A DNA stretch of 64,000 bases from Eledone cirrhosa (GCA_964016885.1 OZ024742.1:142352001-142416000), one strand, 5' to 3'; shown: positions 16,495 to 50,888, counted from the first letter of the stretch. Translations and numbers: made by a program. The notes: generated from the letters alone by a model not told the origin.

Positions 16495-16566
<72 letters not shown>

Positions 16567-16605
16567 ATATATAAGATCAAAAGATAGTTAAATGAGTTCC
16601 ATGTA

Positions 16606-16672
16606 TTTTATTATGCGCATTTCGAAAACAAATATCATCATGCAATAACATTTGTGTTTTCATCAGATAAAA
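16606..16672 (-). ncRNA. Minimal type I hammerhead in the inverted pLTR
   Basis: Reverse complement: ttttat-CTGATGA-long stem II-GAAA-tgcgca-TA-ataaaa; palindromic stem III. Confidence 0.75.
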
Positions 16673-17026
16673 TATGAGGACATGATATGAAGGGTAAAAA
16701 CACTTGTGGATAGTGCAGTTTTAAGTCAACATATGAAAAGTAGTTTTAGATTGATGTGTGATATTGGGGGAGAAAAAATTTTTTGTGGGGGGGGGGGGGG
16801 AAGAGGAGGAGATGAGAGTAAAAAGTGGAGGGGGAGGAGTATAATGAGGAAGGATGAGATAGGAGGAGAGATGGCTGATAGAGAGAGCGAGATAGCTTTT
16901 ATAACTGAGAAAAATATATTGTTTCACATAGAGAGGTTGAAAAACCGTTGGAAGATAATGTATAAATTAAAAGAATTTGAAAATTAACGAAGAGAAAAAT
17001 AATGTAAAGTTAAGGTTTGTATATTG

Positions 17027-17195
17027 AAGGGTTTAATAATATGTGCGATGAAAAGAAATTGTTAATATGTATTAAGAATAATATTTAAGGGTTTAATAAT
17101 ATGTGCGATGGAAAGAAAATGTTAATATGTATTAAGAATAATTTTAAGGGTTTAATAATATGTGCGATGGAAAGAAAATGTTGATATGTATTATT
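17027..17195. repeat. ~59-bp unit repeated three times at the inner end of the inverted pLTR
   Basis: aagggtttaataatatgtgcgatg.aaagaaa.tgtt.atatgtatta occurs three times. Confidence 0.85.
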
Positions 17196-18983
17196 AAAAA
17201 AACACAGAAGTAATGTAAGTAGGGATATATTGTGAGATGAGCATGAATAAGTTAGATGAAAGTGAGAAAAAAATAATGAATAGAGGATGAATAATCTAAC
17301 GCCATAAAAACAATGAGAACCTAAATTATGTTAATTTTAAATCTAACCACCCTACTAATATTAAGAATGCTATAGTTAGTAATATTGGAAAAAGAATATC
17401 TAACCTATCTTCTAATAAAAACATCTTCGATGCTAACGCCAATTACTATAACAACGCGCTTTCTAAAGCCGGCTATCCTGATAAAATCAAATATAATAAA
17501 GAAACAAATTCTAGAAAATCTTACAGTAGAATAATTAATCATGATCATTCCAATAACTTTAATAAAAGACCTAGATACAAAAACATAATCTGGTATAATC
17601 CTCCTTTCTCCATCTCTATTAATAATAATATTCCTAAATTATTCTTTAGTGCCTTAAATAAATGCTTCCCTCCCTCACATATCTATAGTAAAATATTTAA
17701 CAAACACACTATAAAATTTTCCTATTCGACATCCTCCAACATTTCCAACATTATCTCTAAACACAACAATAAAATACTAAATACTAAATCTCTTCCTTCC
17801 AACACTGAATATCATAATAATAGTAATAGTACTCCAAACGTCATTGTAAACCCTAGGCTAATTTCTGCAAACCCAAATACAACGTCAAACACAACTTCGC
17901 TAAATGTTCTTAATCCCATTCTAAATCAAGAAACTATTATTCCTATCGCAAATAACTTCTCCAATCCAATTCCTTCTATAGATAACACTCGTTAATAATC
18001 TCTCTAATTGCAATTGCAATTGCCCTGCTAAAAATAAATGTCCTCTCAACAACCATTGTCTTGATAAAAACTTAATTTACGAATGTAAAGTTATAACTGA
18101 CACCAATTCCTTCACCTATTTTGGCTCCACTTCCACCTCCTTTAAAGCTTGTCTTTATAATCATCATTCGTCTTTTAAATATAAACTTAAAAGAACCAAC
18201 ACGGCTCTCTCAGAACTCATATGGTCCTTGAAAGACAAAAATATTAAATATAACATCTCTTGGAAGAAGGTTTCCTCTGCTTCTTTATACTTGAACAGTT
18301 CTCTATCCAAGACTTGCAATCTCTGTCTGAATGAAAAATTTACCATTATATCTAATTTAGATTCTATAATAAATAGACGCACTGACTTGTTTTCTATCTG
18401 CTTGCATAAATTCCACAGAACTTTCCATAAAGTATACAGCTAATATCCTAAACTTTATCAATTCAGAATCCTTTTCTCAAAGGCACATATATATATATAC
18501 TTCTTTAAAAATATACCCATCTTTCTACCTTATTTCAAAGTTATTTATCATATTCTATATCATTCCTATTCATCACTTCTCTTTCTTTCTTTTCATCGCA
18601 CATATTATTAAACCCTTCAATATACAAACCTTAACTTTACATTATTTTTCTCTTCGTTAATTTTCAAATTCTTTTAATTTATACATTATCTTCCAACGGT
18701 TTTTCAACCTCTCTATGTGAAACAATATATTTTTCTCAGTTATAAAAGCTATCTCTCTCTCTCTCTATCAGCCATCTCTCCTCCTATCTCATCCTTCCTC
18801 ATTATACTCCTCACCCTCCACTTTTTACTCTCATCTCCTCCTCTTTTTCATCCTTTCCAACCTCCGCCCCCCTCAAAAAAAATGTTCACCAATATCACAC
18901 ATTAATCTAAAACTACTTTTCATATGTTGACTTAAAACTGCACTATCCACAAGTATTTTTAACCTTCATATCATGTCCTTATA

Positions 18984-19050
18984 TTTTATCTGATGAAAAC
19001 ACAATTGTTATTGCATGATGATATTTGTTTTTGAAATGCGCATAATAAAA
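18984..19050 (+). ncRNA. Minimal type I hammerhead in the 3' pLTR of PLE D
   Basis: ttttat-CTGATGA-aaacacaattgttattgcatgatgatatttgttttt-GAAA-tgcgca-TA-ataaaa. Confidence 0.75.
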
Positions 19051-19205
19051 TACATGGAACTCATTTAACCATCTTTTGATCTTATATATTATGTATACTC
19101 CAGTCCTACAAATTGTAGAGTGCTTCTTATCCGATATCTGCATTGCTTTATTGTACTACAATAAAACTCACCTCCTACATGTATATATATATATGTATGT
19201 ATATA

Positions 19206-19600: not shown

Positions 19601-20116
19601 ATATATGTATATATATATAGTTAGAGAAGCAAAAAATTGCTTATTGTGATCCAGTTCTTGGTTAAGAAAGCCAGTTTCATGGATGGTTTCAACGTACGGT
19701 TAGGGGTAACTCCACAAGTTTGTAAGAATTCCGTTCAATCTTGGAGTATAAAGTATAAAAGAGAAAACACAGGTAAGCATTAAGAGAAGGATTTTATTCA
19801 AGTATTTACGACCGTTTCATTGGTAAGTGCAACCTTATATTGCTATACTACAAATAGCAGCCACTCAATTATAATTGTTGTTCACAGTCCAAATTTTCAA
19901 AATAGTAAGTTACTGTTGAAATAATTCTTAATATATAGAGAAAAACATTTATTTGGAATTGTATTTACTAGTATAGAGAGAGAGGAATCAGGAGGTGGGG
20001 GGACAGACGGAATAGTATAGAGAGAGAGGAAGGGGGAAGAGGTAGGAAGTAGAGTGACAAACTGAGATGGAGGGAGGGGTGGTGGTGGAGGGAATCCTTG
20101 GTCAGTTTTGATAGCA

Positions 20117-20548
20117 GAATAATAATAAACATTCGATATTAATAAATTTCGATATTAATAATAACGTTCGATTCGTTAGCAATTTTGCAAACAAGCCTCA
20201 ATTTTATAGCCATGTTCGCATGCCAACACAAGAGGAAGAATGAAGTGTTCATTCTACTGACATGGCTATAATATTGAGGTTTGTTTGCAAAAGTGCAAAC
20301 GAATCGAATGTTATTATTAATATTCGAAAAAGGGTGGTGGACTGGCAGTATCGGTAGAGGGTCGGACGCCATGCTTTCCAGCATAGTTACGTCCCTTTAC
20401 GATCTGAGTTCAAATCCCGCCGAGGTTAACTTTGCCTTTCATCCTTACGGGGTCGATAAAATAAAGTACCAGTAATGAACTGGGTATTTGCTGGCCTTGT
20501 GCCTAAAGTAGAAACAATTATTAATATTCGAAAAACTCAGATTACATT
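20117..20548. mobile_element. Hairpin MITE truncated at its left end, containing a tRNA-SINE (20331-20516, +) with ~18-bp TSD
   Basis: Internal inverted repeat gcaaacaagcctcaattttatagccatgt / acatggctataatattgaggtttgtttgc; TSD attattaatattcgaaaa. Confidence 0.75.
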
Positions 20549-20580
20549 AATTGTATTCACCCATGTAGAGCGAAATTTTC

Positions 20581-20715
<135 letters not shown>

Positions 20716-23700
20716 TAATTCCCTCGTTATTTAGCTCCTATCTCCGTAGTAGAGCACTTTCCAACCCTACCACGCCATATCCCGACTTTTCCACCCAGCT
20801 TAGTTTATTCACTCGCACCATGCGAAAACACAACATCGACTTCTCCACCAAGAACATCGCAGTTCCACCGAGAAAACTTTACCTTCGGATGCTCACGCAA
20901 AAAATCAACCTTTTTGCGAAAAGACTAAGATGGAGAACTTTTTCTACGATAGATACCGCGACAATCAGGACTTTGACACCAAGGAGAGATTTGGATTCAA
21001 TACCTACAAATCTCCCCCTCCGAACCATATGCTCTCACCCTTCGAGAACGACCTTTTCCACCTGGTCAAGAGCATTATATTCAAACCCAGACACAACAGA
21101 TTCCTACAAAAACTCCGTAGCAAAATAACAGAGTATGAAAACACCAACGACATCATGGTGCACTCGGACAAAACTGGAAACCTCTATATCGTCAACCCTG
21201 ACAGATACCACACACTGATCAGGAGCAGCCTAAACTCCACCTATAAAAAGGCTAACCATTCAATTATCGAGGACATAAATCGAGATGGACAACAAATTAC
21301 CTCCAGTCTCGGTGTCGCCGACCGCACTGAACCCCTAGACCCACGGATTCCCTACTTCACACTGAAGGACAACAAATCCGACTTCGACCGCAAACCATCC
21401 ATCAGGCTTATAAACCCAACGAAGTCGGACATAGGGAGAATCAGTAAAAAAAATTCTAGATCGCGTTATACCAAAAGTTAAGCAAAACACGAGACTTAGC
21501 CTATGGGTCAACACCCAGGAAGTAATCTCATGGTTCAGGAATATGGAGGACAAACGAGACACAAAATTCATCCAGTTTGACATAGAGAGTTACTATGCAT
21601 CTATTACCTTACCGCTCCTTACGGCCGCCTTGGACTTTGGCGAAACACTCACGCCCATCACTGACCAGGAAAGAAATATCATTCTCCACGCCAGGAAGAC
21701 AGTCCTACTTTTCGACAACTCCAAGGGGATAAAGAGAACTCCCGACTCACCCTTCGACGTCAGTATGGGCGCGACGGATTCGGCCGAGGTCACAGATTTT
21801 ATAGGATTATTCCTATTATTTAAACTCACCGAAATGTTTCCTGCATTCGGCAGTGGATTGAACCGAGATGATGGGCTCCTCACCCCCAAAGGGTACAACC
21901 CCAGTAGTACAGACCGGGTCCGTAAACAACTAATCAGCTTCTTCCGGGACTGGGGATTTAAAATCACCCTACAAACGTCCCTAACCCGTGTAAATTTCCT
22001 GGACGTTACCCTTAACCTCGAAAATGATCTGTACTACCCATACAGGAAACCAAACGACAACCTGCACTACATCCACCGCCGCTCTAACCATCCTAGAAAC
22101 ATCACCAATAACCTGGTTAAAAACATCTCCCTCCGCATATCTCGTTTGTCCACTAATGAGTAGATATTCGACGAAAATGCGCCTCATTAAACCAGGCCCT
22201 CAAGCGGAGTGGCTTCCGGGAGGAAATATCCTTTTATCCAGCTTCCCTTAGCGGAACCAGCAGGCGCAATGTAACGTGATTCAATCCTCCCCACAATGCC
22301 GAGGTGGCAACACCTATCGGGAAAATCTTTAGGCTCCTCGAAAAACACTTCCCACCACAACATAATCAACAAAAACACCATCAAACTCTCCTACAGCACC
22401 ACACCTAACTTCACACAAAACATCGTCTCCCCAAACAACAAAAAACTCAACCCCTATGGAAGAAATAACTTAGACATCAGTGGAGAGCCGACCAGGAGGT
22501 ATAACTGTCCTGATAGATCCATGTGCCCACACAAGAACAGATGCCGAGAACGGAACGTGATCTACCAGTGCAACGTGAGGACGGACACCTCCAACAAAGC
22601 TTATATAGGATTAACCGCTTTAGACTTCAAGACCCGGCTCTACCAACACCGACATACTTTCCGAAACCCGGTCCGGCGACATGCCACTACACTTTTGGGC
22701 CACATCTGGGACCTCAAAGATAATAATATAACCTACAATCTCACTTGGAGCTTACTGTTCAGAGCTAACTCTTACACGGGAGGACGTCGTCCGTTTAACT
22801 TATACTCGGAGGAAACATTACAAATGTTGTTTTCGAAGGACCAACTCCTAAACAAGAAAGACGAACTGGTAACCGCATGCAAACACAGATTGCGTAGGAC
22901 CTACCTCGCCTTTAAACCCCATAACGACCCGGTGGGTAGACAACGGCTGATACCCCCCACTTGCCGAATAAGTTAGGGGAAACTCCTGATTACATAGGGA
23001 GAAGTACCTCTTTTTTTCTCCTCTACGTTTCCTTCTTCCCCCGATCTCCTTCCTCGTCTGTCTTTCCCCTTTCGCCTACCCCGATGCAGCCCATCATCCT
23101 CTGTAGTCTCAGTACCCCCACCCCAGTATTTTAAAGATATAATTGGCCGATTACGCTTTACTAACTATTTATAGCAGATGTGTTAGACCCCTGTAATTTC
23201 TTCTTTTTTTTTGTTACTACTCCATTTCTCAATTTCAATATTTCTCATTTAGTAGTTTCTTATCTCTACTTATTAACCTGTAATTGTATGATAGCATTGG
23301 CTGATTACGCTTTACTAACTATTTATAACAGCTGTGTTAGACCCCTTGAAAAGTTTGCATTATTTTTTCACGACCCACTCCAACATTCTCTTATTTAGTA
23401 TTTTACTCTCTACTTATTAAACTTTTCTATAGCTTTGCCGTACCAGCAACACCTATTAATTATAGCAGCTGTTTCTAGACTCCAATGTATTTGTTTTTTT
23501 CATTTCTCAATATATCATTTTTTATATTTATATATTTTTATTTTTATTTTCATTGTCTTCGTCTTACCTATTCTTTATACTCCCCTCCTCCTTTTCCCCA
23601 GAACATTCTTTCATACACTTTCCTTAGAATCTGTTGTATAGATTTCACTTTCAACGCCTAACTGGCTTTACTCATTCCTTCTTTGTTCTACCGGCAAGTT

Positions 23701-23911
23701 CAGCCACTCCTACCTCCCACTAAATGCCATGACAGATCTACTTGTCTTTACAACAAAATTTGACCAATCCTCTTGACAATTATAATCTTCCCATATAAGG
23801 AAGTTCCCCTTGATAAGTTCGGCTATTTATTTACCAGGTTAAAAATTCTAATTTAGTCCTGAAATAGCCGTCGAAACGGCTTGAGCTCTGCTGTCGGGGT
23901 CATACCTTTTA
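20716..23911 (+). mobile_element. Apparently full-length but disabled Penelope-like element (Naiad-like, family A): N-terminus, RT, GIY-YIG and long 3' UTR
   Basis: FSTKNI.VP..LRW, SDKTGNLY, RLINPTKSDIG, FDIESYYASI, FDVSMGATD, (N)RDDG, VNFLDVT, YRKPN..SNHP, VIYQC..YIGLT; several frameshifts and stops. Confidence 0.9.
23806..23900 (+). ncRNA. Degenerate hammerhead-like motif at the 3' end of PLE A
   Basis: cccc / gggg stem I, cggctattt..aaatagccg stem II, GAAA-cggcttgagctctgctg-TC; 5' core decayed to ttgataag. Confidence 0.45.
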
Positions 23912-24889
23912 CTATATATATATATATATATACCTACATACACAGACTCACATACACACACAACCATATAACTAACATATGCGTCCTCTGACGCCTGCCT
24001 ACATGCTCGCGTACATCAGCACTCACACGCACATGCACATATACACACGTGTCCGTATACAGAGGCACAGAGACAGACTCGCTCCCCATCACACACATAC
24101 ACACATATATATCCCCCCTGTAGGTCCCCTACACCCATACCAATGACCAATGGACAACAACAACCACCCATAGTTTGTGGATCCTCTACTGGTTAGGAGT
24201 CATATAAACCACGTTTTATTGAACCTGATTTTATATATATATGTATATATATATCATGTGTATATATATATATATATTTTATATGTGTATATATGTGTAT
24301 TTTATATATATGTATATATATGTATATATTTTATATATATATGTATGTGTATTTTATATATATATATGTGTATGTATGTTTTATGTCTGTATATATTTTA
24401 TGTATGTGTGTATTTTATGTATATATATATATATTTTATATATATGTATGTTCTGTGTATATATATATATTTTATATATATATATACTTGTGCGTACATA
24501 CGTACATGTATATATATATATATACACACCTGAATGGATTTGTGTGTGTAGATGTGTGAGTGTTTGAGGGGGTAGGTGTGAGTGTATGTACAAGTCAACC
24601 TTTTATTTCTAAATTTTCTAAACTATCTAAGTATTGGACTCTAACCATTATATTAAGTATTACCACCCCACATTTTGTATGTGTGTATGTGTATGTGTGT
24701 CTGTGGAGGTGGGTGTGAGTGTGTGCAAGCCAACCTACATAAGTATTTTTATTTGTAAATGTTCTACTCTAATCATGAATTTCAGTAGCACCACTCCACA
24801 TAAATTCCTCAATTTAAGAATGACCTGTAGTATCTATTTCATACTATTAACCTTAATTGAATATATATCTGACCAGGAATGATTTTTGT

Positions 24890-25310
<421 letters not shown>

Positions 25311-26718
25311 ACGAAGGAAATGTGGTAAGGAACCAGATGGACCATCACGCACCAAAGTACTCAATACTTAGGGTAGTAGAGTGGGTGATAGGAACGAGTA
25401 GGACCCCTACGGCTGAGCTCAAGCCGTTTCGACGGCTAATTCTGGACTAAATGAACATTTTTATCCTGGTAAATGAATAGCCGAGCTTCTCAGGGGGTAA
25501 TTCCATATATGGTAAAAGTGATTGTCACAGGGATTGGTAAAAACTTTGTTGTTGAGACACATAATTCTATCATGGCATTTTGTGGAAGGAAGGGGTAGCT
25601 GAACTTGCCAGTAGAACAAAGAGGGAGAGGGAGTGGAGGAAACTCAGTCGTGCGTTGAAAGTGACAACTACAGCAGAATCCTAAGGATAAGAGGTGAAGA
25701 GGGGGAGGGGGAGGAAGTCGAAACAATAAGTAAATCTATATGGAGTAAATCTATATAGAAAAATAAGAATGTTAAAAATATAAAAAAACACAATTTCTGG
25801 TTACTATTCCCCTACCACAATCATCAAGTCTCTCATTGGTACTGCTAAACTATAGAAAAGTTTAATAGGTGGGGCGGGATACTAAATACGAGATTGTAGT
25901 GAAAGAATTTTATGAGGTAGTAGTAATCGGCCAAATCTATCTTACAATGACAGGTCAACAAGTAGGGGGCCAAAATACTAAAAAGAACTAATACGAAATA
26001 ATAATTCAGAGACCCGAAACTAATACGAATTAATAATTCAGAATCCCGAAAACGAATACTAATACAATATATAAGAGTACCGCTACAATACATAAATTCT
26101 AATGCAAACTACATAAATGCTCGTACGATATATATGAAAAAATTAATACGAAAAATTAATTCAGAATCCCCCCCCCCCCCCAAAATAATACTGATATACG
26201 AGAAACCAAAGCAGAGATACCACCAAGAAATCTAGAAATCACGGAAATGGGGTGCAATCAGATAAGAAAGCAAGTATCTGGGGTCTAGCACATCTGCTAT
26301 AAAAAGCGGAGTCGGCCAATTCTATCATAGAATAGGGGATGGGGTGGGGGTACTGAGGCTACAGAGGACCGAAGGGCTGACTCGGGGTGAGCGAGATGGT
26401 GAAAAGAACGACGACAAAGAAGAAGAACTGGGGTGGAAGGACTAGGAAGGGATGGGGGGAAGAAGGAAATATAGAGGAAACGATAAAAAATATATAAGAA
26501 AATCTTACGTCTACCTTTGTAAGCAGGGGTTACCCATTACGAAGTCGGCAAGTGGGGTGTTACAGCCCTTGTCCACCGCCCCCCCCCCCCTCCGGGTCAT
26601 TATAGGGTTTGAGGGCGAGGTAAGTCCTACGTAATCTGTGTTTGCATGCAGTTACCAGTTCGTCTTTCTTGTATGGGAGTTGGTCCGTCGAACTGGTAAC
26701 TGCATGCAAACACAGATT
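25311..26718 (-). mobile_element. 3' fragment of an A-related PLE (A'), with a degenerate hammerhead at 25403-25498 and a 30-bp fold-back at its 5' end
   Basis: KKDELVTACKHRLRRTYLA shared with element A; 3' UTR similar but diverged; mirror at 35338-36603. Confidence 0.8.
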
Positions 26719-28037
<1,319 letters not shown>

Positions 28038-28079
28038 GGATATATATATTTCTATATATATATATATGTATATATATAT

Positions 28080-28184
<105 letters not shown>

Positions 28185-28243
28185 TATATATATATGTATA
28201 TATATATTTATGTAGTGTAGTTGAACATAGATGCGCGTGTTGT

Positions 28244-28356
<113 letters not shown>

Positions 28357-28697
28357 ACATATATACATGTATATATTGTACCTTTTGATTTTTAATTGTA
28401 ATTTTAATGTTGGTAAAGGTATATTATTATAATGTATTATGTTATATTACATTGTGTTATATATAATTCCTGCTCTATATAACCAAATTTGTTTAGATTT
28501 AGGTTAGTTGCTTTGGACTATATTTGTAATATGGTTCTTAATGTTATATACATCCTTAGTTACACTTATTATATACTTTAATTATTTTTATTTTTATTTT
28601 TATTATCATATATCTTTGCAAGACTTTAGTGTATGTACACTCCATATTCTTCGGAGATTCCGGCTTGTATCTTCCGATATTACTTCTTGTTGTTTTG

Positions 28698-28742
28698 ATT
28701 GCCCTGATGAGTCCTTAATAGGACGAAACATTGTCGGCTAAT
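28698..28742 (+). ncRNA. Minimal type I hammerhead with canonical core in an orphan pLTR (about 28365-28786)
   Basis: gcc-CTGATGA-gtcct taat aggac-GAAA-cattg-TC-ggc followed by aataaa. Confidence 0.85.
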
Positions 28743-28896
28743 AAAAACTTTTGATGTATTAAAGGATTCTTTGTTTTACTCTCTTAATATATATTTATGT
28801 ATATATATATATGTATATATATATATGTATATATATATATATGTATATGTTTATATATATATGTATATATATATGTATATATATATGTATATGTAT

Positions 28897-29232
<336 letters not shown>

Positions 29233-29619
29233 ACTATATATATATATATATATTTGTGTATATATATGTATTTATGTATATATATGTATTTATATATTTA
29301 TGTACATATATATGTATATATGTATATATTTATGTATATATATATGTATATATATATATACATATATATATGTATATATATATATATATATATGTCGTTT
29401 CTGAATTTGTTTAGCAAGATTCTTTATCTGAAATCGTGTGTTGAAACCGATATTGTTATACTTTGGGAGGGTCATGTTGCCAATAAGAAACACACGCACC
29501 AGTTGCTTTCACTTCAATTTATTATATATTTATAAATTTATAAATTTACAAATCTACAAACTTATAAATTTCTGGTTGGTTGGTTGGTTGGTTCCACAAC
29601 CAGATAGTTGTTTATATAT

Positions 29620-29664
29620 AAACATAGTCCTTTCGTCACACACTCTGTGACCTCTTCAGTGACT
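29620..29664 (-). ncRNA. Minimal type I hammerhead in the PLE B 3' UTR
   Basis: Mirror of 32401-32445 with one stem I mismatch. Confidence 0.7.
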
Positions 29665-29898
29665 GGGGATTCCTTTCTTTGTTTCTGTGCCTTTCCTTTC
29701 TTCTATCCTACGCCATTTTGTTTCTGTGTGTGTGTTGTGTGCTCAGTTTGCGCATGCGCCACATCCGGGTGTCTGTGTGTGTTTGTGTTCATTTATCTAT
29801 TTGTTTATTTATTTATTTATTTATTTATTGTTGGTTGGTTGTTTGTTCTATGTGTGTGTGTGTTTTCATTTTGTCCTGTGTGTGTTTTCATTTTGTCC

Positions 29899-31110
29899 TT
29901 AATTGTAAGTTGTGATGTTGCTGTTCCACTCATATTTTCTATTTAATTTTGGTTGTAATTCTTTTATGCTTACTGCCTCTGTAATTTGCCTAAACATTGC
30001 ATCTTTTCTGTGTGTGGATTCTATTTTTATTTCTATGTTCTCTAATCTACCCCTGTGCTCTATCTTAGCATGTTGGTAGAGCACAGATGATTCTTTATTA
30101 TCTTGAAGGTCTCGCCAGTGTTCATTTATTCGTTCCCCTATACTACGAGCTGTCTCACCTATGTACACTATATTTTTGTTTCTACATTGTCCTTCAGTAC
30201 ATCTTATGCTATACACTACATTTCTAGTTTTACAGTTAATATGGGGGCTTATTTTACAGGTTATACATTTCTTATCTATACATGAGGGTCTTTGGAACGG
30301 GTATGTCTTGCTAATAAGTGTTTTTACGGAGGTACCTGGTCTTTCTACTATCTTAATATTGAGTTTATGTTTATTTAGGGCCCTTCTAAATTTGTAGGCT
30401 AGTTCGCCTCTAGGGGTTGTATTGATGAAAATTACACTCTGGTATTTATTGCTATCATACCATGAGTTTATTCTATTGGCCTTGTTCCTAGTTCTTTCTA
30501 TTCTATTCCAAAATTTGCTCCTATACAAGGGGTAGGTCCCATTTATGTCATTATTTACCATTTTTTCCCATTTGGTTCTGGCTCCTCTATACACTCTGAT
30601 TCTATCTCTCTGATTGTAGCCAGAGAACTGCATACGGTGGATGAAGTGTTGTATGTGTCTCTCTAGTTCTTCGGGGTTGCACATGCGGGACACATTTCTC
30701 ATCACCCGTACCAAATCCGCAATCAGTATGTTGATTTTGGTATGGTCCGAAATGGCCGAGTTTCGGTGGATCAGATGTTTGGAAGTCATAGGTTTGGCAT
30801 AATGGGAATGAAGGATTTGTTTTTGGTTGTTAATGGTATCTAACCAGAGCTCTATGTCTAGTACAGGTAATCGATGGTTGGGGTGTCTACTTGGGTAGTC
30901 TATAGTAACTCTAATGCTCTGGTGGATGGAGTTTGCTATTTGCTGGATGATTTCCATTGTGTTTTTCTCTAGTTCCTGACTGTTCTTTAGTGGGGGTGTC
31001 TTAACTACGATGTTTATATCATCTACGTAGCGGGAGTACATTATCAGGGTTAAGCTGTCTTCTAATTGTTCTTTAAGTTTTTGTTTAAGTCTACTGTCCC
31101 ACCATGCCAT
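29899..31110 (-). CDS. PLE B partial polyprotein: C-terminal half of RT (YVDD), thumb, Cys linker and GIY-YIG endonuclease
   Basis: 403-aa uninterrupted ORF: YSRYVDD, LPVLD, HYAKPM, CIDKKCITC, NVVY..YIGETARS..R..EH, EAV.I..P.LN. Confidence 0.85.
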   Translation of the reverse strand: MAWWDSRLKQKLKEQLEDSLTLIMYSRYVDDINIVVKTPPLKNSQELEKNTMEIIQQIANSIHQSIRVTIDYPSRHPNHRLPVLDIELWLDTINNQKQILHSHYAKPMTSKHLIHRNSAISDHTKINILIADLVRVMRNVSRMCNPEELERHIQHFIHRMQFSGYNQRDRIRVYRGARTKWEKMVNNDINGTYPLYRSKFWNRIERTRNKANRINSWYDSNKYQSVIFINTTPRGELAYKFRRALNKHKLNIKIVERPGTSVKTLISKTYPFQRPSCIDKKCITCKISPHINCKTRNVVYSIRCTEGQCRNKNIVYIGETARSIGERINEHWRDLQDNKESSVLYQHAKIEHRGRLENIEIKIESTHRKDAMFRQITEAVSIKELQPKLNRKYEWNSNITTYN

Positions 31111-31187
31111 GAATAAGTTAGCTATGTCGCCTGCAATGCTAACACCAATGGCTGCTCCTTCCTCTTGGGCATATGTTTTACCATTAA

Positions 31188-32162
31188 ATGGGCATATGTT
31201 TTACCATAGAGCTCTGGTTAGATACCATTAACAACCAAAAACAAATCCTTCATTCCCATTATGCCAAACCTATGACTTCCAAACATCTGATCCACCGAAA
31301 CTCGGCCATTTCGGACCATACCAAAATCAACATACTGATTGCGGATTTGGTACGGGTGATGAGAAATGTGTCCCGCATGTGCAACCCCGAAGAACTAGAG
31401 AGACACATACAACACTTCATCCACCGTATGCAGTTCTCTGGCTACAATCAGAGAGATAGAATCAGAGTGTATAGAGGAGCCAGAACCAAATGGGAAAAAA
31501 TGGTAAATAATGACATAAATGGGACCTACCCCTTGTATAGGAGCAAATTTTGGAATAGAATAGAAAGAACTAGGAACAAGGCCAATAGAATAAACTCATG
31601 GTATGATAGCAATAAATACCAGAGTGTAATTTTCATCAATACAACCCCTAGAGGCGAACTAGCCTACAAATTTAGAAGGGCCCTAAATAAACATAAACTC
31701 AATATTAAGATAGTAGAAAGACCAGGTACCTCCGTAAAAACACTTATTAGCAAGACATACCCGTTCCAAAGACCCTCATGTATAGATAAGAAATGTATAA
31801 CCTGTAAAATAAGCCCCCATATTAACTGTAAAACTAGAAATGTAGTGTATAGCATAAGATGTACTGAAGGACAATGTAGAAACAAAAATATAGTGTACAT
31901 AGGTGAGACAGCTCGTAGTATAGGGGAACGAATAAATGAACACTGGCGAGACCTTCAAGATAATAAAGAATCATCTGTGCTCTACCAACATGCTAAGATA
32001 GAGCACAGGGGTAGATTAGAGAACATAGAAATAAAAATAGAATCCACACACAGAAAAGATGCAATGTTTAGGCAAATTACAGAGGCAGTAAGCATAAAAG
32101 AATTACAACCAAAATTAAATAGAAAATATGAGTGGAACAGCAACATCACAACTTACAATTAA
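31188..32162 (+). CDS. PLE B thumb + GIY-YIG ORF with a junction-derived ATG (324 aa, lacks YVDD)
   Basis: Identical in amino acids to the left copy from IELWLD to TTYN; the first seven codons come from the junction duplication. Confidence 0.7.
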   Translation: MGICFTIELWLDTINNQKQILHSHYAKPMTSKHLIHRNSAISDHTKINILIADLVRVMRNVSRMCNPEELERHIQHFIHRMQFSGYNQRDRIRVYRGARTKWEKMVNNDINGTYPLYRSKFWNRIERTRNKANRINSWYDSNKYQSVIFINTTPRGELAYKFRRALNKHKLNIKIVERPGTSVKTLISKTYPFQRPSCIDKKCITCKISPHINCKTRNVVYSIRCTEGQCRNKNIVYIGETARSIGERINEHWRDLQDNKESSVLYQHAKIEHRGRLENIEIKIESTHRKDAMFRQITEAVSIKELQPKLNRKYEWNSNITTYN

Positions 32163-32400
32163 GGACAAAATGAAAACACACACAGGACAAAATGAAAACA
32201 CACACACACATAGAACAAACAACCAACCAACAATAAATAAATAAATAAATAAATAAATAAACAAATAGATAAATGAACACAAACACACACAGACACCCGG
32301 ATGTGGCGCATGCGCAAACTGAGCACACAACACACACACAGAAACAAAATGGCGTAGGATAGAAGAAAGGAAAGGTACAGAAACAAAGAAAGGAATCCCC

Positions 32401-32445
32401 AGTCACTGAAGAGGTCACAGAGTGTGTGACGAAAGGACTATGATT
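32401..32445 (+). ncRNA. Minimal type I hammerhead in the PLE B 3' UTR (right copy)
   Basis: agtca-CTGAAGA-g gtcaca gagtg tgtgac-GAAA-ggac-TA-tgatt. Confidence 0.75.
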
Positions 32446-33014
32446 ATATATAAACAACTATCTGGTTGTGGAACCAACCAACCAACCAGAAATTTATAAG
32501 TTTGTAGATTTGTAAATTTATAAATTTATAAATATATAATAAATTGAAGTGAAAGCAACTGGTGCGTGTGTTTCTTATTGGCAACATGACCCTCCCAAAG
32601 TATAACAATATCGGTTTCAACACACGATTTCAGATAAAGAATCTTGCTAAACAAATTCAGAAACGACATATATATATATATATATATATACATATATATA
32701 TGTATATATATAAATACATATATATATACATAAATATATACATATATACATATATATATACATAAATATATAAATACATATATATACACAAATATATATA
32801 TATATATATAGTGAAGGCTGAGTGGTTAGAGAATTGGATTCACAATCTTGAGGTTGTGAGCTCGATTCCTGGACCGGGCGATGCGTTATGTCCTTGAGCA
32901 AGACACTTTATTTCACGTTGCTCCTTCTACCTGGAGTTGCGACCGATAGATAGTATTAGCAACTGGAAAGACCGACGAAAACATTGTTTCCTCGGTCCGA
33001 ATTGACGAAAGTCG

Positions 33015-33100
<86 letters not shown>

Positions 33101-33260
33101 ATACATATACATATATATATACATATATATATACATATATATATATACATATACATATATATATATATACATATATATATATACATATACATATATATAT
33201 ATACATAAATATATATTAAGAGAGTAAAACAAAGAATCCTTTAATACATCAAAAGTTTTT

Positions 33261-33305
33261 ATTAGCCGACAATGTTTCGTTCTATTAAGGACTCATCAGG
33301 GCAAT
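33261..33305 (-). ncRNA. Hammerhead, mirror of 28698-28742
   Basis: Same motif with one stem II substitution (agaac versus aggac). Confidence 0.75.
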
Positions 33306-33647
33306 CAAAACAACAAGAAGTAATATCGGCAGATACAAGCCGGAATCTCCGAAGAATATGGAGTGTACATACACTAAAGTCTTGCAAAGATATATGATAA
33401 TAAAAATAAAAATAAAAATAATAAAAGTATATAATAAGTGTAACTAAGGATGTATATAACATTAAGAACCATATTACAAATATAGTCCAAAGCAACTAAC
33501 CTAAATCTAAACAAATTTGGTTATATAGAGCAGGAATTATATATAACACAATGTAATATAACATAATACATTATAATAATATACCTTTACCAACATTAAA
33601 ATTACAATTAAAAGTCAAAAGGTACAATATATACATGTATATATGTG

Positions 33648-33685
<38 letters not shown>

Positions 33686-33757
33686 TATATATATAACAAC
33701 ACGCGCATCTATGTTCAACTACACTACATAAATATATATATACATATATATATATGC

Positions 33758-33854
<97 letters not shown>

Positions 33855-33883
33855 TATATATACATATATATATATATATAGAA

Positions 33884-33970
<87 letters not shown>

Positions 33971-34002
33971 CATATATATATATACATATATATATATATA
34001 TT

Positions 34003-34209
<207 letters not shown>

Positions 34210-34217
34210 TTTTATAC

Positions 34218-34319
<102 letters not shown>

Positions 34320-36415
34320 CGTGTCTGAATTTGTTTAGCAAGATTCTTTATCTGAAAACGTGTGTTGAAACCGATATTGTTATGCTTTGGGAGGGTCATG
34401 TTGCCAATAAGAAACACACGCACCAGTTGCTTTCACTCCAATTTATTATAAATTAAATTTATAAATTTAAGAATTTAAGAATTTATAAATATCCGGTTGG
34501 TTGGTTGGTTCCACAACCAGATGATTGTTTATATATTGTCAAAGTTCTTTCGTCACACATTCTGTGACCTCTTCAATGACTGGGGATTCTTTTCTTTGTT
34601 TTTGTGCCTCTCCTTTGTTCTTTCCTACGCCATCTTGTTTTTGTGTGTGTTATGTGTTTAGTTTGCGCATGTGTTACATCCGGGTGTCTGTGTGTGTTTA
34701 TATTTGTTTATTTATTTGTTTATTTACTTGTTACTGGTTGGTTGTTTGTTCTATGTGTGTGTGTGTTTTCATTTTCTCCTTAATTGTAAGTTGTGATGTT
34801 GCTATTCCATTCATGTTTTCTATTTGGTTGGAGTTCGTTTATGTTTATTGCCTCTGTGATTTGTCTAAACATTGCGTCTTTTCTGTGTGTAGATTCTATG
34901 TTTATTTCTATGTGCTCTAATTTACCCTTATGTTCTATTTCATGTTGGTGGAGTACAGATGATTCTTTTCTATCTTGAAGCAGTGTTCATTTATCCGTTC
35001 TCCTATACTACGAGCTGTCTCACCTATGTACACTATATTCTTATCTCTACATTGTCCTTCAGTACATCTTATGCTATATACTACATTTCTAGTTTTACAG
35101 TTAATAGGGGGCTTAGTTTACAGATTATACATTTCTTATCTATACAGGGAGGTCTTAGAAAAGGGTATGTATTGCTAATAAGTGTTTTTATGGAGGTACC
35201 TGGTCTTTCTACTATCTTAATATTGAGTTTATGTTTATCTAAGGCCCTTCTAAATTTGTAAGCTAATTCACCTCTAGGGGTTGTATTGGTGAACATTACA
35301 CTCTGGTATTTATTGCTATCATACCATCAGTTTATTCAATCTGTGTTTGCATGCAGTTACCAGTTCGACGGACCAACTCCTATACAAGAAAGACGAACTG
35401 GTAACTGCATGCAAACACAGATTACGTAGGACTTACCTCGCCCTCAAACCCTATAATGACCCGGAGGGGGGGCGGTAGACAAGGGCTGTAACACCCCACT
35501 TGCCGACTTCGTAATGGGTAACCCCTGCTTACAAAGGTAGACGTAAGATTTTCTTATATATTTTTTATCGTTTCCTCTATATTTCCTTCTTCCCCCCATC
35601 CCTTCCTAGTCCTTCCACCCCAGTTCTTCTTCTTTGTCGTCGTTCTTTTCACCATCTCGCTCACCCCGAGTCAGCCCTTCGGTCTTCTGTAGCCTCAGTA
35701 CCCCCACCCCATCCCCTATTCTATGATAGAATTGGCCGACTCCGCTTTTTATAGCAGATGTGCTGTATTAATTTTTTCATATATATCGTACGAGCATTTA
35801 TGTAGTTTGCATTAGAATTTATGTATTGTAGCGGTACTCTTATATATTGTATTAGTATTCGTTTTCGGGATTCTGAATTATTATTTCGTATTAGTTTCGG
35901 GTCTCTGAATTATTATTTCGTATTAGTTCTGTTTAGTATTTTGGCCCCCTACTTGTTGACCTGTCATTGTAAGATAGATTTGGCCGATTACTACTACCTC
36001 ATAAAATTCTTTCACTACAATCTCGTATTTAGTATCCCGCCCCACCTATTAAACTTTTCTATAGTTTAGCAGTACCAATGAGAGACTTGATGATTGTGGT
36101 AGGGGAATAGTAACCAGAAATTGTGTTTTTTTATATTTTTAACATTCTTATTTTTCTATATAGATTTACTCCATATAGATTTACTTATTGTTTCGACTTC
36201 CTCCCCCTCCCCCTCTTCACCTCTTATCCTTAGGATTCTGCTGTAGTTGTCACTTTCAACGCACGACTGAGTTTCCTCCACTCCCTCTCCCTCTTTGTTC
36301 TACTGGCAAGTTCAGCTACCCCTTCCTTCCACAAAATGCCATGATAGAATTATGTGTCTCAACAACAAAGTTTTTACCAATCCCTGTGACAATCACTTTT
36401 ACCATATATGGAATT

Positions 36416-36511
36416 ACCCCCTGAGAAGCTCGGCTATTCATTTACCAGGATAAAAATGTTCATTTAGTCCAGAATTAGCCGTCGAAACGGCTTGAGCTCA
36501 GCCGTAGGGGT
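36416..36511 (+). ncRNA. Hammerhead-like motif with long stems II and III and a shortened 5' core (A' pLTR)
   Basis: acccc-CTGAGAA-gctcggcta...tagccgtc-GAAA-cggct tgagctc agccg-TA-ggggt. Confidence 0.55.
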
Positions 36512-36602
36512 CCTACTCGTTCCTATCACCCACTCTACTACCCTAAGTATTGAGTACTTTGGTGCGTGATGGTCCATCTGGTTCCTTACCACATTTCCTT
36601 CG

Positions 36603-36639
<37 letters not shown>

Positions 36640-36673
36640 CGAAACATAAGCATGAACTCATAATCCTTTATTT

Positions 36674-36729
36674 ACTGCTATATATATTTCGATGATAGCC
36701 ATTGAATGGCTATGACTTCATCAGGCAGT
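36674..36729 (-). ncRNA. Hammerhead, mirror of 25121-25176
   Basis: Same motif with G-to-A immediately after CTGATGA. Confidence 0.7.
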
Positions 36730-37938
36730 TAGTCAGTTCTTAGATATGCTGCTCTGTGTTTATAGTGTTGATGGTATCAGAGCCTTGGGACATATGAGCT
36801 TGTTAGGAATAATTTAATGTTGTCAGCAGGAATAGTCTTGATTCTCATTGGTCAGTTTGTAGATGGTAGTAGTGTTGGTATTTGACCTCAAAGAGGCATG
36901 TGGTGTTGTAAAGTTCAAACCGTCAGGCAAGATGACAATAGTTTCATATGATTGATTTTCACAAAAATCATTCCTGGTCAGATATATATTCAATTAAGGT
37001 TAATAGTATGAAATAGATACTACAGGTCATTCTTAAATTGAGGAATTTATGTGGAGTGGTGCTACTGAAATTCATGATTAGAGTAGAACATTTACAAATA
37101 AAAATACTTATGTAGGTTGGCTTGCACACACTCACACCCACCTCCACAGACACACATACACATACACACATACAAAATGTGGGGTGGTAATACTTAATAT
37201 AATGGTTAGAGTCCAATACTTAGATAGTTTAGAAAATTTAGAAATAAAAGGTTGACTTGTACATACACTCACACCTACCCCCTCAAACACTCACACATCT
37301 ACACACACAAATCCATTCAGGTGTGTATATATATATATATACATGTACGTATGTACGCACAAGTATATATATATATAAAATATATATATATACACAGAAC
37401 ATACATATATATAAAATATATATATATATACATAAAATACACACATACATAAAATATATACAGACATAAAACATACATACATATATATATATATAAAATA
37501 CACATACATATATATATAAAATATATACATATATATACATATATATAAAATACACATATATACACATATAAAATATATATATATATATACACATGATATA
37601 TATATACATATATATATAAAATCAGGTTCAATAAAACGTGGTTTATATGACTCCTAACCAGTAGAGGATCCACAAACTATGGGTGGTTGTTGTTGTCCAT
37701 TGGTCATTGGTATGGGTGTAGGGGACCTACAGGGGGGATATATATGTGTGTATGTGTGTGATGGGGAGCGAGTCTGTCTCTGTGCCTCTGTATACGGACA
37801 CGTGTGTATATGTGCGTGTGCGTGTGAGTGCTGATGTACGCGAGCATGTAGGCAGGCGTCAGAGGACGCATATGTTAGTTATATGGTTGTGTGTGTATGT
37901 GAGTCTGTGTATGTAGGTATATATATATATATATATAG

Positions 37939-40900
37939 TAAAAGGTATGACCCCGACAGCAGAGCTCAAGCCGTTTCGACGGCTATTTCAGGACTAAATT
38001 AGAATTTTTAACCTGGTAAATAAATAGCCGAACTTATCAAGGGGAACTTCCTTATATGGGAAGATTATAATTGTCAAGAGGATTGGTCAAATTTTGTTGT
38101 AAAGACAAGTAGATCTGTCATGGCATTTAGTGGGAGGTAGGAGTGGCTGAACTTGCCGGTAGAACAAAGAAGGAATGAGTAAAGCCAGTCAGGCGTTGAA
38201 AGTGAAATCTATACAACAGATTCTAAGGAAAGTGTATGAAAGAATGTTCTGGGGAAAAGGAGGAGGGGAGTATAAACAATAGGTAAGACGAAGACAATGA
38301 AAATAAAAATAAAAATATATAAATATAAAAAATGATATATTGAGAAATGAAAAAAACAAATACATTGGAGTCTAGAAACAGCTGCTATAATTAATAGGTG
38401 TTGCTGGTACGGCAAAGCTATAGAAAAGTTTAATAAGTAGAGAGTAAAATACTAAATAAGAGAATGTTGGAGTGGGTCGTGAAAAAATAATGCAAACTTT
38501 TCAAGGGGTCTAACACAGCTGTTATAAATAGTTAGTAAAGCGTAATCAGCCAATGCTATCATACAATTACAGGTTAATAAGTAGAGATAAGAAACTACTA
38601 AATGAGAAATATTGAAATTGAGAAATGGAGTAGTAACAAAAAAAAAGAAGAAATTACAGGGGTCTAACACATCTGCTATAAATAGTTAGTAAAGCGTAAT
38701 CGGCCAATTATATCTTTAAAATACTGGGGTGGGGGTACTGAGACTACAGAGGATGATGGGCTGCATCGGGGTAGGCGAAAGGGGAAAGACAGACGAGGAA
38801 GGAGATCGGGGGAAGAAGGAAACGTAGAGGAGAAAAAAAGAGGTACTTCTCCCTATGTAATCAGGAGTTTCCCCTAACTTATTCGGCAAGTGGGGGGTAT
38901 CAGCCCTTGTCTACCCACCCGGGTCGTTATGGGGTTTAAGGGCGAGGTAGGTCCTACGCAATCTGTGTTTGCATGCGGTTACCAGTTCGTCTTTCTTGTT
39001 TAGGAGTTGGTCCTTCGAAAACAACATTTGTAATGTTTCCTCCGAGTATAAGTTAAACGGACGACGTCCTCCCGTGTAAGAGTTAGCTCTGAACAGTAAG
39101 CTCCAAGTGAGATTGTAGGTTATATTATTATCTTTGAGGTCCCAGATGTGGCCCAAAAGTGTAGTGGCATGTCGCCGGACGGGTTTCGGAAAGTATGTCG
39201 GTGTTGGTAGAGCCGGGTCTTGAAGTCACAATCGGTTAATCCTATATAAGCTTTGTTGGAGGTGTCCGTCCTCACGTTGCACTGGTAGATCACGTTCCGT
39301 TCTCAGCATCTGTTCTTGTGTGGGCACATGGATCTATCAGGACAGTTATACCTCCTGGTCGGCTCTCCACTGATGTCTAAGTTATTTCTTCCATAGGGGT
39401 TGAGTTTTTTGTTGTTTGAGGAGACGATGTTTTGTGCGAAGTTAGGTGTGGTGCTGTAGGAGAGTTTGGTGGTGTTTTTGTTGATTATGTTGTGGTGGGA
39501 AGTGTTTTTCGAGGAGCCTAAAGATTTTCCCGATAGGTGTTGCCACCTCGGCATTGTGGGGAGGATTGAATCACGTTACATTGCGCCTGCTGGTTCCGCT
39601 AAGGGAAGCTGGATAAAAGGATATTTCCTCCCGGAAGCCACTCCGCTTGAGGGCCTGGTTTAATGAGGCGCATGTTCGTCGAATATCTACTCATTAGTGG
39701 ACAAACGAGATAAGCGGAGGGAGATGTTTTTAACCAGGTTATTGGTGATGTTTCTAGGATGGTTAGAGCGGCGGTGGATGTAGTGCAGGTTGTCGTTTGG
39801 TTTCCTGTATGGGTAGTACAGATCATTTTCGAGGTTAAGGGTAACGTCCAGGAAATTTACACGGGTTAGGGACGTTTGTAGGGTGATTTTAAATCCCCAG
39901 TCCCGGAAGAAGCTGATTAGTTGTTTACGGACCCGGTCTGTACTACTGGGGTTGTACCCTTTGGGGGTGAGGAGCCCATCATCTCGGTACAATCCACTGC
40001 CGAATGCAGGAAACATTTCGGTGAGTTTAAATAATAGGAATAATCCTATAAAATCTGTGACCTCGGCCGAATCCGTCGCGCCCATACTGACGTCGAAGGG
40101 TGAGTCGGGAGTTCTCTTTATCCCCTTGGGGTTGTCGAAAAGTAGGACTGTCTTCCTGGCGTGGAGAATGATATTTCTTTCCTGGTCAGTGATGGGCGTG
40201 AGTGTTTCGCCAAAGTCCAAGGCGGCCGTAAGGAGCGGTAAGGTAATAGATGCATAGTAACTCTCTATGTCAAACTGGATGAATTTTGTGTCTCGTTTGT
40301 CCTCCATATTCCTGAACCATGAGATTACTTCCTGGGTGTTGACCCATAGGCTAAGTCTCGTGTTTTGCTTAACTTTTGGTATAACGCGATCTAGAATTTT
40401 TTTTACTGATTCTCCCTATGTCCGACTTCGTTGGGTTTATAAGCCTGATGGATGGTTTGCGGTCGAAGTCGGATTTGTTGTCCTTCAGTGTGAAGTAGGG
40501 AATCCGTGGGTCTAGGGGTTCAGTGCGGTCGGCGACACCGAGACTGGAGGTAATTTGTTGTCCATCTCGATTTATGTCCTCGATAATTGAATGGTTAGCC
40601 TTTTTATAGGTGGAGTTTAGGCTGCTCCTGATCAGTGTGTGGTATCTGTCACGGTTGACGATATAGAGGTTTCCAGTTTTGTCCGAGTGCACCATGATGT
40701 CGTTGGTGTTTTCATACTCTGTTATTTTGCTACAGAGTTGTTGTAGGAATCTGTTGTGTCTGGGTTTGAATATAATGCTCTTGACCAGGTGGAAAAGGTC
40801 GTTCTCGAAGGGTGAGAGCATATGGTTCGGAGGGGGAGATTTGTAGGTATTGAATCCAAATCTCTCCTTGGTGTCAAAGTCCTGATTGTCGCGGTATCTG

Positions 40901-41134
40901 TCGTAGAAAAAGTTCTCTATCTTAGTCTTTTCGCAAAAAGGTTGATTTTTTGCGTCAGCATCCGAAGGTAAAGTTTTCTCGGTGGAACTGCGATGTTCTT
41001 GGTGGAGAAGTCGATGTTGTGTTTTCGCATGGTGCGAGTGAATAAACTAAGCTGGGTGGAAAAGTCGGGATATGGCGTGGTAGGGTTGGAAAGTGCTCTA
41101 CTACGGAGATAGGAGCTAAATAACGAGGGAATTA
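37939..41134 (-). mobile_element. Mirror copy of PLE A
   Basis: ORFs 39687-40307 and 40369-40821 mirror 21543-22163 and 20930-21481; retains YRDDG. Confidence 0.9.
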
Positions 41135-41269
<135 letters not shown>

Positions 41270-41301
41270 GAAAATTTCGCTCTACATGGGTGAATACAAT
41301 T

Positions 41302-41758
41302 AATGTAATCTGAGTTTTTCGAATATTAATAATTATTTCTACTTTAGGCACAAGGCCAGCAATTACCCAGTTCATTACTGGTACTTTATTTTATCGACCC
41401 CGTAAGGATGAAAGGCAAAGTTAACCTCGGCGGGATTTGAACTCAAATCGTAAAGGGACGTAACTATGCTGGAAAGCATGGCGTCCGACCCTCTACCGAT
41501 ACTGCCAATCCACCACCCTTTTTCGAATATTAATAATAACATTCGATTCGTTTGCACTTTTGCAAACAAACCTCAATATTATAGCCATGTCAGTAGAATG
41601 AACACTTCATTCTTCCTCTTGTGTTGGCATGCGAACATGGCTATAAAATTGAGGCTTGTTTGCAAAATTGCTAACGAATCGAACGTTATTATTAATATCG
41701 AAATTTATTAATATCGAATGTTTATTATTATTCATATTCAATAAACTCAGATTACATT
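41302..41758. mobile_element. Complete hairpin MITE with a nested SINE (41334-41520, -)
   Basis: Perfect 16-bp outer TIR aatgtaatctgagttt / aaactcagattacatt. Confidence 0.75.
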
Positions 41759-41781
41759 TATTATATATATATGAATATATG

Positions 41782-43551
<1,770 letters not shown>

Positions 43552-45122: not shown

Positions 45123-45464
45123 AGTTCGGACCAGCCTTCGCCCATGCGCACTTCGGACCAGCCTTTGCGCATGCGCATTTCGGACCAGCCTTCGGTCAGG
45201 CGCACTTCGAACCAGCTTTCGCGCATGCGCAGTATGGAGCACCCTTCACGCATGCGCAGTACGGACCAGACTTCACGCATGCGCATTCGGACCAGCGTGG
45301 CGCAAGCGCAGTTCAGACCAGCCTTCGTGCATGCGCAGTTCGGACCAGCCTTCGCGCATACGCACTTCCAACAAGACTTCGCGCATGCGCACTTCTAACC
45401 AGCCTTCACGCATGCGCACTTCGGACCAAACTTCGCGCATGCGCACTTTGGACCAGACTTCGCC
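45123..45464. repeat. GC-rich 27-bp minisatellite, about 12-13 copies
   Basis: Consensus acttcggaccagccttcgcgcatgcgc. Confidence 0.92.
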
Positions 45465-50422: not shown

Positions 50423-50888
50423 CAATAAGCATTCAGTGGTTTGATCAACTCATTAAATTAACATGTAAATGACTGAGTTTCATGGATAAAAGTATGCTCC
50501 ACATAATTCCTAGGTCAAATCAGCATCACAGTATTTTGAGGACACCAATGACTTCTACATAGTTATCTCTATTAAATTTCCCTATCAATGTGTTGGTCAA
50601 CCTGAGCTCATGGTTGAAATATGCATGTTATGAGTTGTAGGCTATAGTTTGATCAATAAGCATTCAGTGGTTTGTTCTACTCATTAAATTAACATGTAAA
50701 TGACTGAGTTTCATGGATAAAAGTATGCTCCACATAATTCCTAGGTCAAATCAGCATGACACTATTTTGAGGACACCAAGTAGAAATGACTTCTACATAG
50801 TTATCTCTATTAAATTTCCCTATCAATGTGTTGGTCAACCTGAGCTCATGGTTGAAATATGCATGTTATGAGTTGTAGGCTATAGTTT
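50423..50888. repeat. Tandem duplication with a 231-bp period
   Basis: caataagcattcagtggtttg...gtaggctatagttt starting at 50423 and 50654. Confidence 0.9.

Follow-up and report, generated by a model that had tools for sequence, protein, structure and literature searches.

How did two copies of one retrotransposon come to lie head-to-head around a short stretch of single-copy DNA, and did retrotransposition itself make the join? The locus lies in a 64-kb window, the whole stretch of Eledone cirrhosa DNA that was analysed, and its centre falls in a Penelope-like element (PLE), here called B. An earlier note on this DNA had described the inverted join as a 348-bp loop with a 19-bp stutter at its tip and a 3-bp microhomology at its edge, and had read it as the trace of a polymerase that slipped back 23 nt and then switched strand. 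We conclude that the junction is a fold-back duplication of a known kind and a real feature of the assembled sequence; its link to Penelope retrotransposition is plausible but unproven.

Anatomy of the Junction

The features at the centre are as follows.

30857–31204, no strand: single-copy spacer of 348 nt, consisting of 332 nt of native B reverse transcriptase (RT) sequence (30857–31188) and 16 nt of duplicated tip
31166–31184, plus strand: 19-nt repeat, native copy
31189–31207, plus strand: 19-nt repeat, templated second copy (stutter, period 23 nt), at which the RT frame is broken
31205–31207, plus strand: CAT, the 3 bp common to the stutter and the right arm, pairing with 30854–30856

The innermost inverted arms end at 30856 on the left and begin at 31205 on the right. 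The base pairs 31205/30856, 31206/30855 and 31207/30854 are followed inward by the unpaired positions 31204/30857, so the loop is 30857–31204 and the overlap exactly CAT, and the dimensions in the earlier note are all borne out. TAAA separates the two identical 19-mers. The spacer had been taken for nothing other than further RT sequence of the left copy; this is correct for the 332 native nucleotides, which are in frame with the left arm, but not for 31189–31204, which belong to the duplicated tip. The loop has no second match within the window and is thus the single-copy spacer of a fold-back duplication.

Could the stutter be part of the element itself? When the loop was subjected to Markov shuffling, the longest direct repeat was 15 nt, and 19 nt was reached in 0 of 3000 shuffles; therefore, the 19-nt repeat is not a product of chance. 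Once its second copy is removed, the longest repeat left in the loop is 9 nt. Whether the stutter is native was tested at the protein level only, not against a B DNA consensus. Among the 116 B homologues found at E 0.001 or better, 74 extend 20 residues or more beyond the FNG motif on its upstream side, and in these T, R or K usually precedes FNG and P never does, whereas the window reads N-I-C-P before FNG, after an in-frame stop just upstream. The Octopus vulgaris relative reads GHTFK-FNNK. Since the 23 nt, which is not a multiple of three, breaks the frame and none of the 74 homologues has Pro, we rejected the stutter as a native part of B, and at the protein level the earlier placement of the repeat outside the element stands. 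Judged from its sequence, the repeat is a templated local duplication.

The 3-bp overlap carries less weight. Among 200,000 random fold-backs in B, 1.5% had an overlap of at least 3 nt when counted one-sided and 4.9% when counted two-sided. Furthermore, 15 ATG sites lie within the ~400 nt of 30780–31184, and eight sites on the same strand offer a better match of 4–6 bp, including one of 6 bp at 30833–30838. The microhomology was therefore rejected as strong evidence, as it is within reach of chance and does not use the best site at hand. What the junction does display is the microhomology and templated insertion of a fold-back, namely the 3-bp overlap, a templated copy of 16–19 nt and a 9-bp inverted repeat beside both ends. 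According to PMC3907307, human inverted duplications have 2–8 bp of microhomology at 13 of 18 non-repeat junctions, together with slippage insertions, and a spacer, inverted microhomology and slippage insertions are described as standard marks of fold-backs (PMC3907307, PMC10622511, PMC11724301, PMC7999016).

The proposal of a 23-nt slip followed by a strand switch survives in part. The templated duplication is present, but the order and direction of the steps are not established, because priming on the opposite strand at CAT/ATG, a 16-nt copy and re-priming 23 nt out would give the same sequence.

The stutter also opens a reading frame.

31188–32162, plus strand: predicted chimeric ORF of 324 aa with its ATG at 31188, reading MGICFT followed by the B thumb, linker and GIY-YIG

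This ORF is probably coincidental. Its in-frame ATG for the right B copy comes from the stutter, and the GIY-YIG part of the predicted product is intact. A mini-hairpin, CCATT-A-AATGG, spans the slip point (31181–31191); it was seen post hoc and may have given the TGG for re-priming.

Element B

29899–31188, minus strand: left B copy, a 5′-truncated Penelope-like ORF of ~430 codons with RT from the FNG motif through YVDD, the Cys linker and GIY-YIG
31205–32162, plus strand: right B copy, starting IELWLD and the same as the left copy at 958/958 ORF sites
29394–29898, minus strand: B 3′ pseudo-LTR, ending at (TA)n

The minus-strand frame 29899–31200 crosses the border between arm and loop unbroken, and the ~430 codons of the B ORF contain no stops and no frameshifts. 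YVDD and the C-terminal IVYIGET, which we take to be the GIY-YIG motif, share one frame, so that RT and the C-terminal domain lie in a single ORF. B agrees with its homologues at 83 of 89 conserved columns. A search with the loop alone returned an 803-aa Octopus vulgaris protein (64% identity over 352 aa), and the O. bimaculoides match to B was 56%. The Pfam RVT_1 match to B reached only E 8.5e-4, which is under the family cut-off, and no Pfam GIY-YIG match to B was obtained. The linker reads C307-x4-C312-xx-C315, and C323, C334, H377 and H382 are conserved among the homologues, which corresponds to the CX2-5CxxC linker and the CCHH motif as defined in PMC8557442, the source also of the GIY-YIG description for EN+ elements. 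The 3′ ends of B and of a further copy, B3, adjoin (TA)n at 29393 and 27729, respectively. By its sequence motifs and (TA)n target, B matches the EN+ Penelope-like elements of the Neptune/Nematis type as PMC8557442 describes them.

The 64-kb window did not yield the 5′ part of B. A motif resembling a hammerhead core, with a 6-bp stem, occurs at 29631–29659 in the B pseudo-LTR, where there is no Rfam hammerhead match. At the border between ORF and pseudo-LTR, both arms carry a 22-nt tandem duplication (29855–29899, 32162–32206) that is absent from B3 and is close in size to the junction stutter.

The Palindrome Around the Junction

The junction is the centre of a 21.6-kb palindrome (20117–41733).

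20117–30856, plus strand: left palindrome arm, 10,740 nt
31205–41733, minus strand: right palindrome arm, 10,529 nt
20116/20117, no strand: outer junction, where the left arm breaks off and unrelated sequence (19620–20116) adjoins it

The right arm continues at 41734 into the apparent natural end of the outermost MITE-like repeat, and several unrelated repeats lie inside both arms. The possibility that the 497 nt to the left of the outer junction are a PLE pseudo-LTR, as in retrotransposon-bridged healing, was unsupported: this segment gave no informative match in the window and no hammerhead.

Are the two B copies independent insertions brought together by ectopic recombination or juxtaposition? 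Head-to-head pairs of different PLE copies do occur in the window (an A-like copy with B3 at 26718, and those at copies C and B2). At this locus, however, both arms share the exact 3′ end of B, the variant pattern of the adjoining (TA)n tract and ~9.3 kb more of flank, which makes two independent insertions very unlikely, and the two B ends are joined at non-homologous positions ~350 nt apart in the element. The flanks largely refute this explanation, which we regard as highly improbable, and here the earlier note was right to see a self-copy.

Divergence between the arms was measured after 8 microsatellite intervals had been masked. Of the 9021 unmasked sites, 50 are different in the two arms (25 transitions and 25 transversions), distributed as 48/7565 outside B, 2/498 in the pseudo-LTR and 0/958 in the ORF; the outer arm difference is 0.63%. 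The inner 1167 unmasked sites (29690–30856/31205–32375) contain no substitutions against 7.4 expected (P 0.0006 by Poisson, 0.004–0.015 allowing for overdispersion). Any one of the following would suffice to produce this run: conversion close to the tip, a self-to-homologue switch, polishing, or mis-assembly. Paralogues polarise 24 of the 50 differences, 15 being derived on the left and 9 on the right, with 26 unpolarised. The B pseudo-LTRs differ between the arms by 2 substitutions and 2 repeat indels, with derived changes in both, and a 137-nt segment (26150–26286) is found in the left arm only, probably as a result of deletion from the right arm.

These figures bear on whether the palindrome is an assembly artefact, caused either by a read that is chimeric or folds back, or by the head-to-head joining of two haplotypes at a genuine ~1-kb PLE inverted repeat. 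The inner 1053 nt of the arms are perfectly complementary while the outer arms differ as alleles do, fold-back reads are reported at ~0.6% of nanopore genomic reads (PMC12870357), and assemblies are known to have difficulty with inverted PLE structures (PMC8557442). On the other hand, a fold-back read is one molecule read twice, yet the arms differ by the above substitutions and the 137-nt indel; these differences, with derived states on both arms, are evidence against a single fold-back read. The window is also free of N. We rejected the outer flanks as mutual alleles, as 0 of 26 matches between them reached 95% identity over 100 nt or more. An artefact thus seems to us quite unlikely.

Could two ends have been fused? 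The identical sequence would result from microhomology-mediated end joining in which priming at CAT/ATG aborted and began again 23 nt away, and the ends could be those of replicated sisters, of two homologues, of two cDNA-extended strands or of the opened centre of an earlier palindrome. Pol theta makes templated insertions. Outer arms from two homologues would account for the 0.63% difference together with the identical core, but the B pseudo-LTRs differ between the arms, and a pure model of two homologues and one template needs extra steps. PMC11702581 puts forward, as its second model, replicated ends tethered by cDNA, and purified PLE protein is described as cutting and extending both target strands (PMC11167929); in yeast, however, annealing within a molecule is argued to be more efficient than annealing of sister ends (PMC10622511). 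We consider such a fusion unlikely.

A Nine-Base-Pair Inverted Repeat Beside Both Ends

30830–30838, plus strand: left half of a native 9-bp inverted repeat, TTAATGGTA, with the acceptor end 18 nt away
31179–31187, plus strand: right half, TACCATTAA, with the native tip (31188) 1 nt away

Perfect inverted repeats are common in B (29394–31188), with 86 of at least 7 bp and 7 of at least 9 bp, but among them only this one adjoins both ends of the junction. Random junction pairs lay equally near such a repeat in 0.2–1.0% of draws, and shuffled sequences gave 34/20,000; the repeat was found post hoc. We conclude that it is a stronger feature than the 3-bp overlap. The earlier note had overlooked it, along with the Penelope-like nature of B and the difference between the matching inner arms and the divergent outer ones.

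The 9-bp stem closes the predicted fold of 30820–31188, the putative cDNA tip, with a pairing probability of 0.16–0.80 that varies with the stretch folded. When the stutter was included, the probability fell to 0.03–0.04, because the end of the stutter itself is then predicted to pair at the 6-bp site, a junction other than the one observed. The loop as a whole was not unusually stable (z 0.22; 58/100 shuffles fold equally well). From these predicted folds, the 9-bp stem may have tethered the tip and blocked the better 6-bp site.

Other Penelope-Like Copies and Fold-Backs in the Window

PLE-ORF-like sequence makes up 16.6% of the 64-kb window, and B is the sole PLE copy found there with a long unbroken ORF. 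The frame is interrupted in B2 by 5 stops and by frame breaks and in B3 by 1 stop and 2 frame breaks, and A is split across three ORFs.

Are other PLE copies centres of fold-backs? A small one lies at 26633–26662/26689–26718, with 30-bp arms, a 26-nt loop and, judged from paralogue A, a 4-bp overlap. It sits at the 5′ end of an A-like PLE, which then stands head-to-head with B3, and it is present in both arms of the palindrome. Inverted 5′ partners accompany C (16564–19180) and B2 (~41895–43522) as well, yet neither is a self-copy: that of B2 is a short inverted 3′-end copy with a ~40-nt tail missing from the direct copy, and the upstream part of the C partner differs from its direct copy. We therefore rejected, for B2 and C, the idea that all head-to-head PLE pairs in the window are snap-backs. 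From their comparison with the direct copies, these two partners would fit priming from both target strands, both of which purified PLE protein is described as cutting and extending (PMC11167929). A further palindrome, at 58875–59332 (centre 59089/59090), has no spacer, a SINE-like tail at its centre and a deletion in its left arm; it contains no PLE ORF, and fold-back-like events thus also occur away from PLEs. The window offers support for a link to PLEs, though not for an exclusive one.

These observations bear in both directions on a fold-back made by the host alone. A double-strand break or collapsed fork in an already integrated B copy would leave a resected 3′ end that slips and folds at short inverted homology; host polymerase fill-in, dicentric breakage and healing would follow. 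A spacer, inverted microhomology of 2–8 bp and a local templated insertion are the standard anatomy of human inverted duplications (PMC3907307), yeast fold-backs are described as driven by breaks near short inverted repeats (PMC10622511), the 9-bp repeat fits this route equally well, and the palindrome at 58875–59332 is not a PLE. However, the break must by chance have hit the window's least decayed PLE ORF and retained its 3′ side, and the second PLE-end fold-back (26633–26718) suggests a bias to PLE 5′ ends. A purely host origin is, in our estimate, somewhat unlikely.

Several further repeats were observed. B2 appears to be a decayed relative of B (~70% identical), and the ~40-nt tail of its partner resembles a PLE tail signature. 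C has a pseudo-LTR-like inverted partner, a 60-nt tandem repeat (2.9 copies, 17021–17193) near the head-to-head join and an N-rich ORF. Element A (20718–23910 plus its mirror) is a decayed PLE with RW-, DKT- and CxCx5C-like motifs; its sequence bears a resemblance to the Hydra clade as described in PMC8557442. The segment 43823–44190 is a near-perfect palindrome with ~185-bp arms and a 1-nt centre that adjoins (TA)n, and may be a MITE or a fold-back. The Rfam search of 13000–50000 returned mainly microsatellite noise. Type I hammerhead-like matches at 28698–28742 (31.7 bits) and 33261–33305 (29.1 bits), against a cut-off of 34, belong to a fragment, pseudo-LTR or retrozyme-like, that stops at (TA)n. 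Elements with terminal inverted repeats occur at 7071–7980, 8318–9448 and 14113–15173, the first with a Mos1-type HTH (mariner-like), and RT fragments at 1398–2387 and 10293–11927 are presumably of the LINE type. A 27-nt minisatellite of 12.6 copies lies at 45125–45463, and a tandem duplication of ~230 nt (95% identical) at 50419–50888.

A Model of cDNA Snap-Back

What could have produced this structure? Fold-back in general, whether at a cDNA end or in integrated DNA, is in our judgement the probable origin. Within it, we tentatively prefer a failed integration in which the 3′ end of B cDNA folded back on its own strand, the product then being replicated into the palindrome. A nick at the (TA)n tract near 29393 would have primed reverse transcription of B, with the plus strand as cDNA. 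Synthesis would have halted near 31188, and the free cDNA would have folded so that 31179–31187 paired with 30830–30838, bringing the tip beside 30839–30856. The end would then have re-primed 23 nt back and recopied the 19 nt that are seen twice, and the new CAT end, which overlaps the right arm, would have primed at the ATG of 30854–30856 and copied its own strand. Fill-in and ligation by the host would have given a hairpin-capped end, and replication a palindrome, one arm of which later broke at 20116/20117, where the second junction is seen, and joined unrelated DNA. The nascent strand, the slipping polymerase, the cDNA nature of the folded strand and the route through hairpin, replication and breakage are those that we infer.

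Several observations argue for the cDNA fold-back. The centre lies at the 5′-truncated end of the window's only PLE copy with a long unbroken ORF, although the argument is partly circular, since the junction itself made that truncated end. The head-to-head orientation is what a cDNA end predicts, the small fold-back at 26633–26718 lies at another PLE 5′ end, a 9-bp inverted repeat stands by both ends of the junction, as in 0.2–1.0% of random pairs, and R2 snap-back (PMC11371274) and L1 fold-backs (PMC11702581) provide precedents. On the other hand, the ~9.3 kb that each arm carries beyond B requires host replication in any case, and the 9-bp stem is post hoc, with its pairing probability of 0.16–0.80 and a loop z of 0.22. 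The partners of B2 and C, not being self-copies, indicate that a head-to-head PLE structure is not always a snap-back. Furthermore, the model predicts even divergence of the arms, and with no substitutions in the inner 1167 sites, later conversion must be added to it. The full form of the explanation, a germline PLE fold-back duplication in which cDNA snap-back was guided by a 9-bp stem in the RT gene and mirrored ~9.3 kb of host flank, is possible but doubtful; in its boldest version, the outer arms may derive from two homologues.

Comparison with Known Systems

The junction resembles the fold-backs of Hermetz et al. 2014 (PMC3907307) in its single-copy spacer, its microhomology (3 bp here, 2–8 bp there), its small locally templated insertion and a further junction where one arm has its far end. 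It differs from them in its spacer of 348 nt, against a sequenced range of 766–70,466 bp reported there, and in that its centre lies in a retrotransposon ORF and the structure is an apparently aged one in an assembly, whereas theirs were de novo clinical events.

Inverted 5′ copies are described as normal for PLEs (PMC8557442, PMC3846280). Like those units, the present one has a head-to-head, 5′-truncated inverted copy, a (TA)n target and an RT with a C-terminal GIY-YIG. Canonical PLE units, as described in the same sources, comprise the element only, with different flanks on each side and often a tail at one end, whereas at this locus the two arms share one and the same end and run on into ~9.3 kb of host DNA common to both. 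An inversion confined to the element with different flanks was thus not what we found, and a canonical PLE inverted unit is excluded because the mirror includes host flank.

R2 cDNA snap-back junctions are known (PMC11371274), and L1 fold-backs are described as arising through cDNA self-annealing, a hairpin and replication (PMC11702581). The model shares with them a cDNA 3′ end that would prime its own strand and a replicated hairpin that would give a fold-back junction with reverse-transcribed sequence. Those cases concern non-LTR elements in engineered or somatic human-cell settings; here the element is a PLE, both arms contain it, and the cDNA role is deduced from the structure only. The 5′ inversions of L1 twin priming (10.1101/2024.08.27.596794) likewise have microcomplementary inversion junctions and internal duplications of median 22 bp, but there, largely non-overlapping inverted segments lie between two flanks, unlike the flank-including mirror at this locus; 'twin switching' as a name did not turn up in that preprint. 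We found no report of a PLE-centred duplication of flanking DNA in the literature searched, of which coverage was limited.

What would such an event mean? The anatomy of the junction is ordinary for fold-backs, and it matters only if the link to retrotransposition holds. If it does, the locus would be the PLE counterpart of L1-mediated fold-backs. PMC8557442 states the origin of tandem and inverted PLE structures to be unresolved, and PMC3846280 invokes an antisense template for self-priming to explain them; cDNA snap-back, not antisense self-priming, would then be one way for PLE repeats to arise head-to-head. The model makes a countable prediction, namely that fold-back centres lie at the 5′ ends of young PLEs and adjoin short native inverted repeats. 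If transcribed, the 1.4-kb inverted B repeat, to judge from its sequence, could yield a hairpin RNA against the family. If the link is true, PLEs would be a source of segmental duplication in a repeat-rich cephalopod genome.
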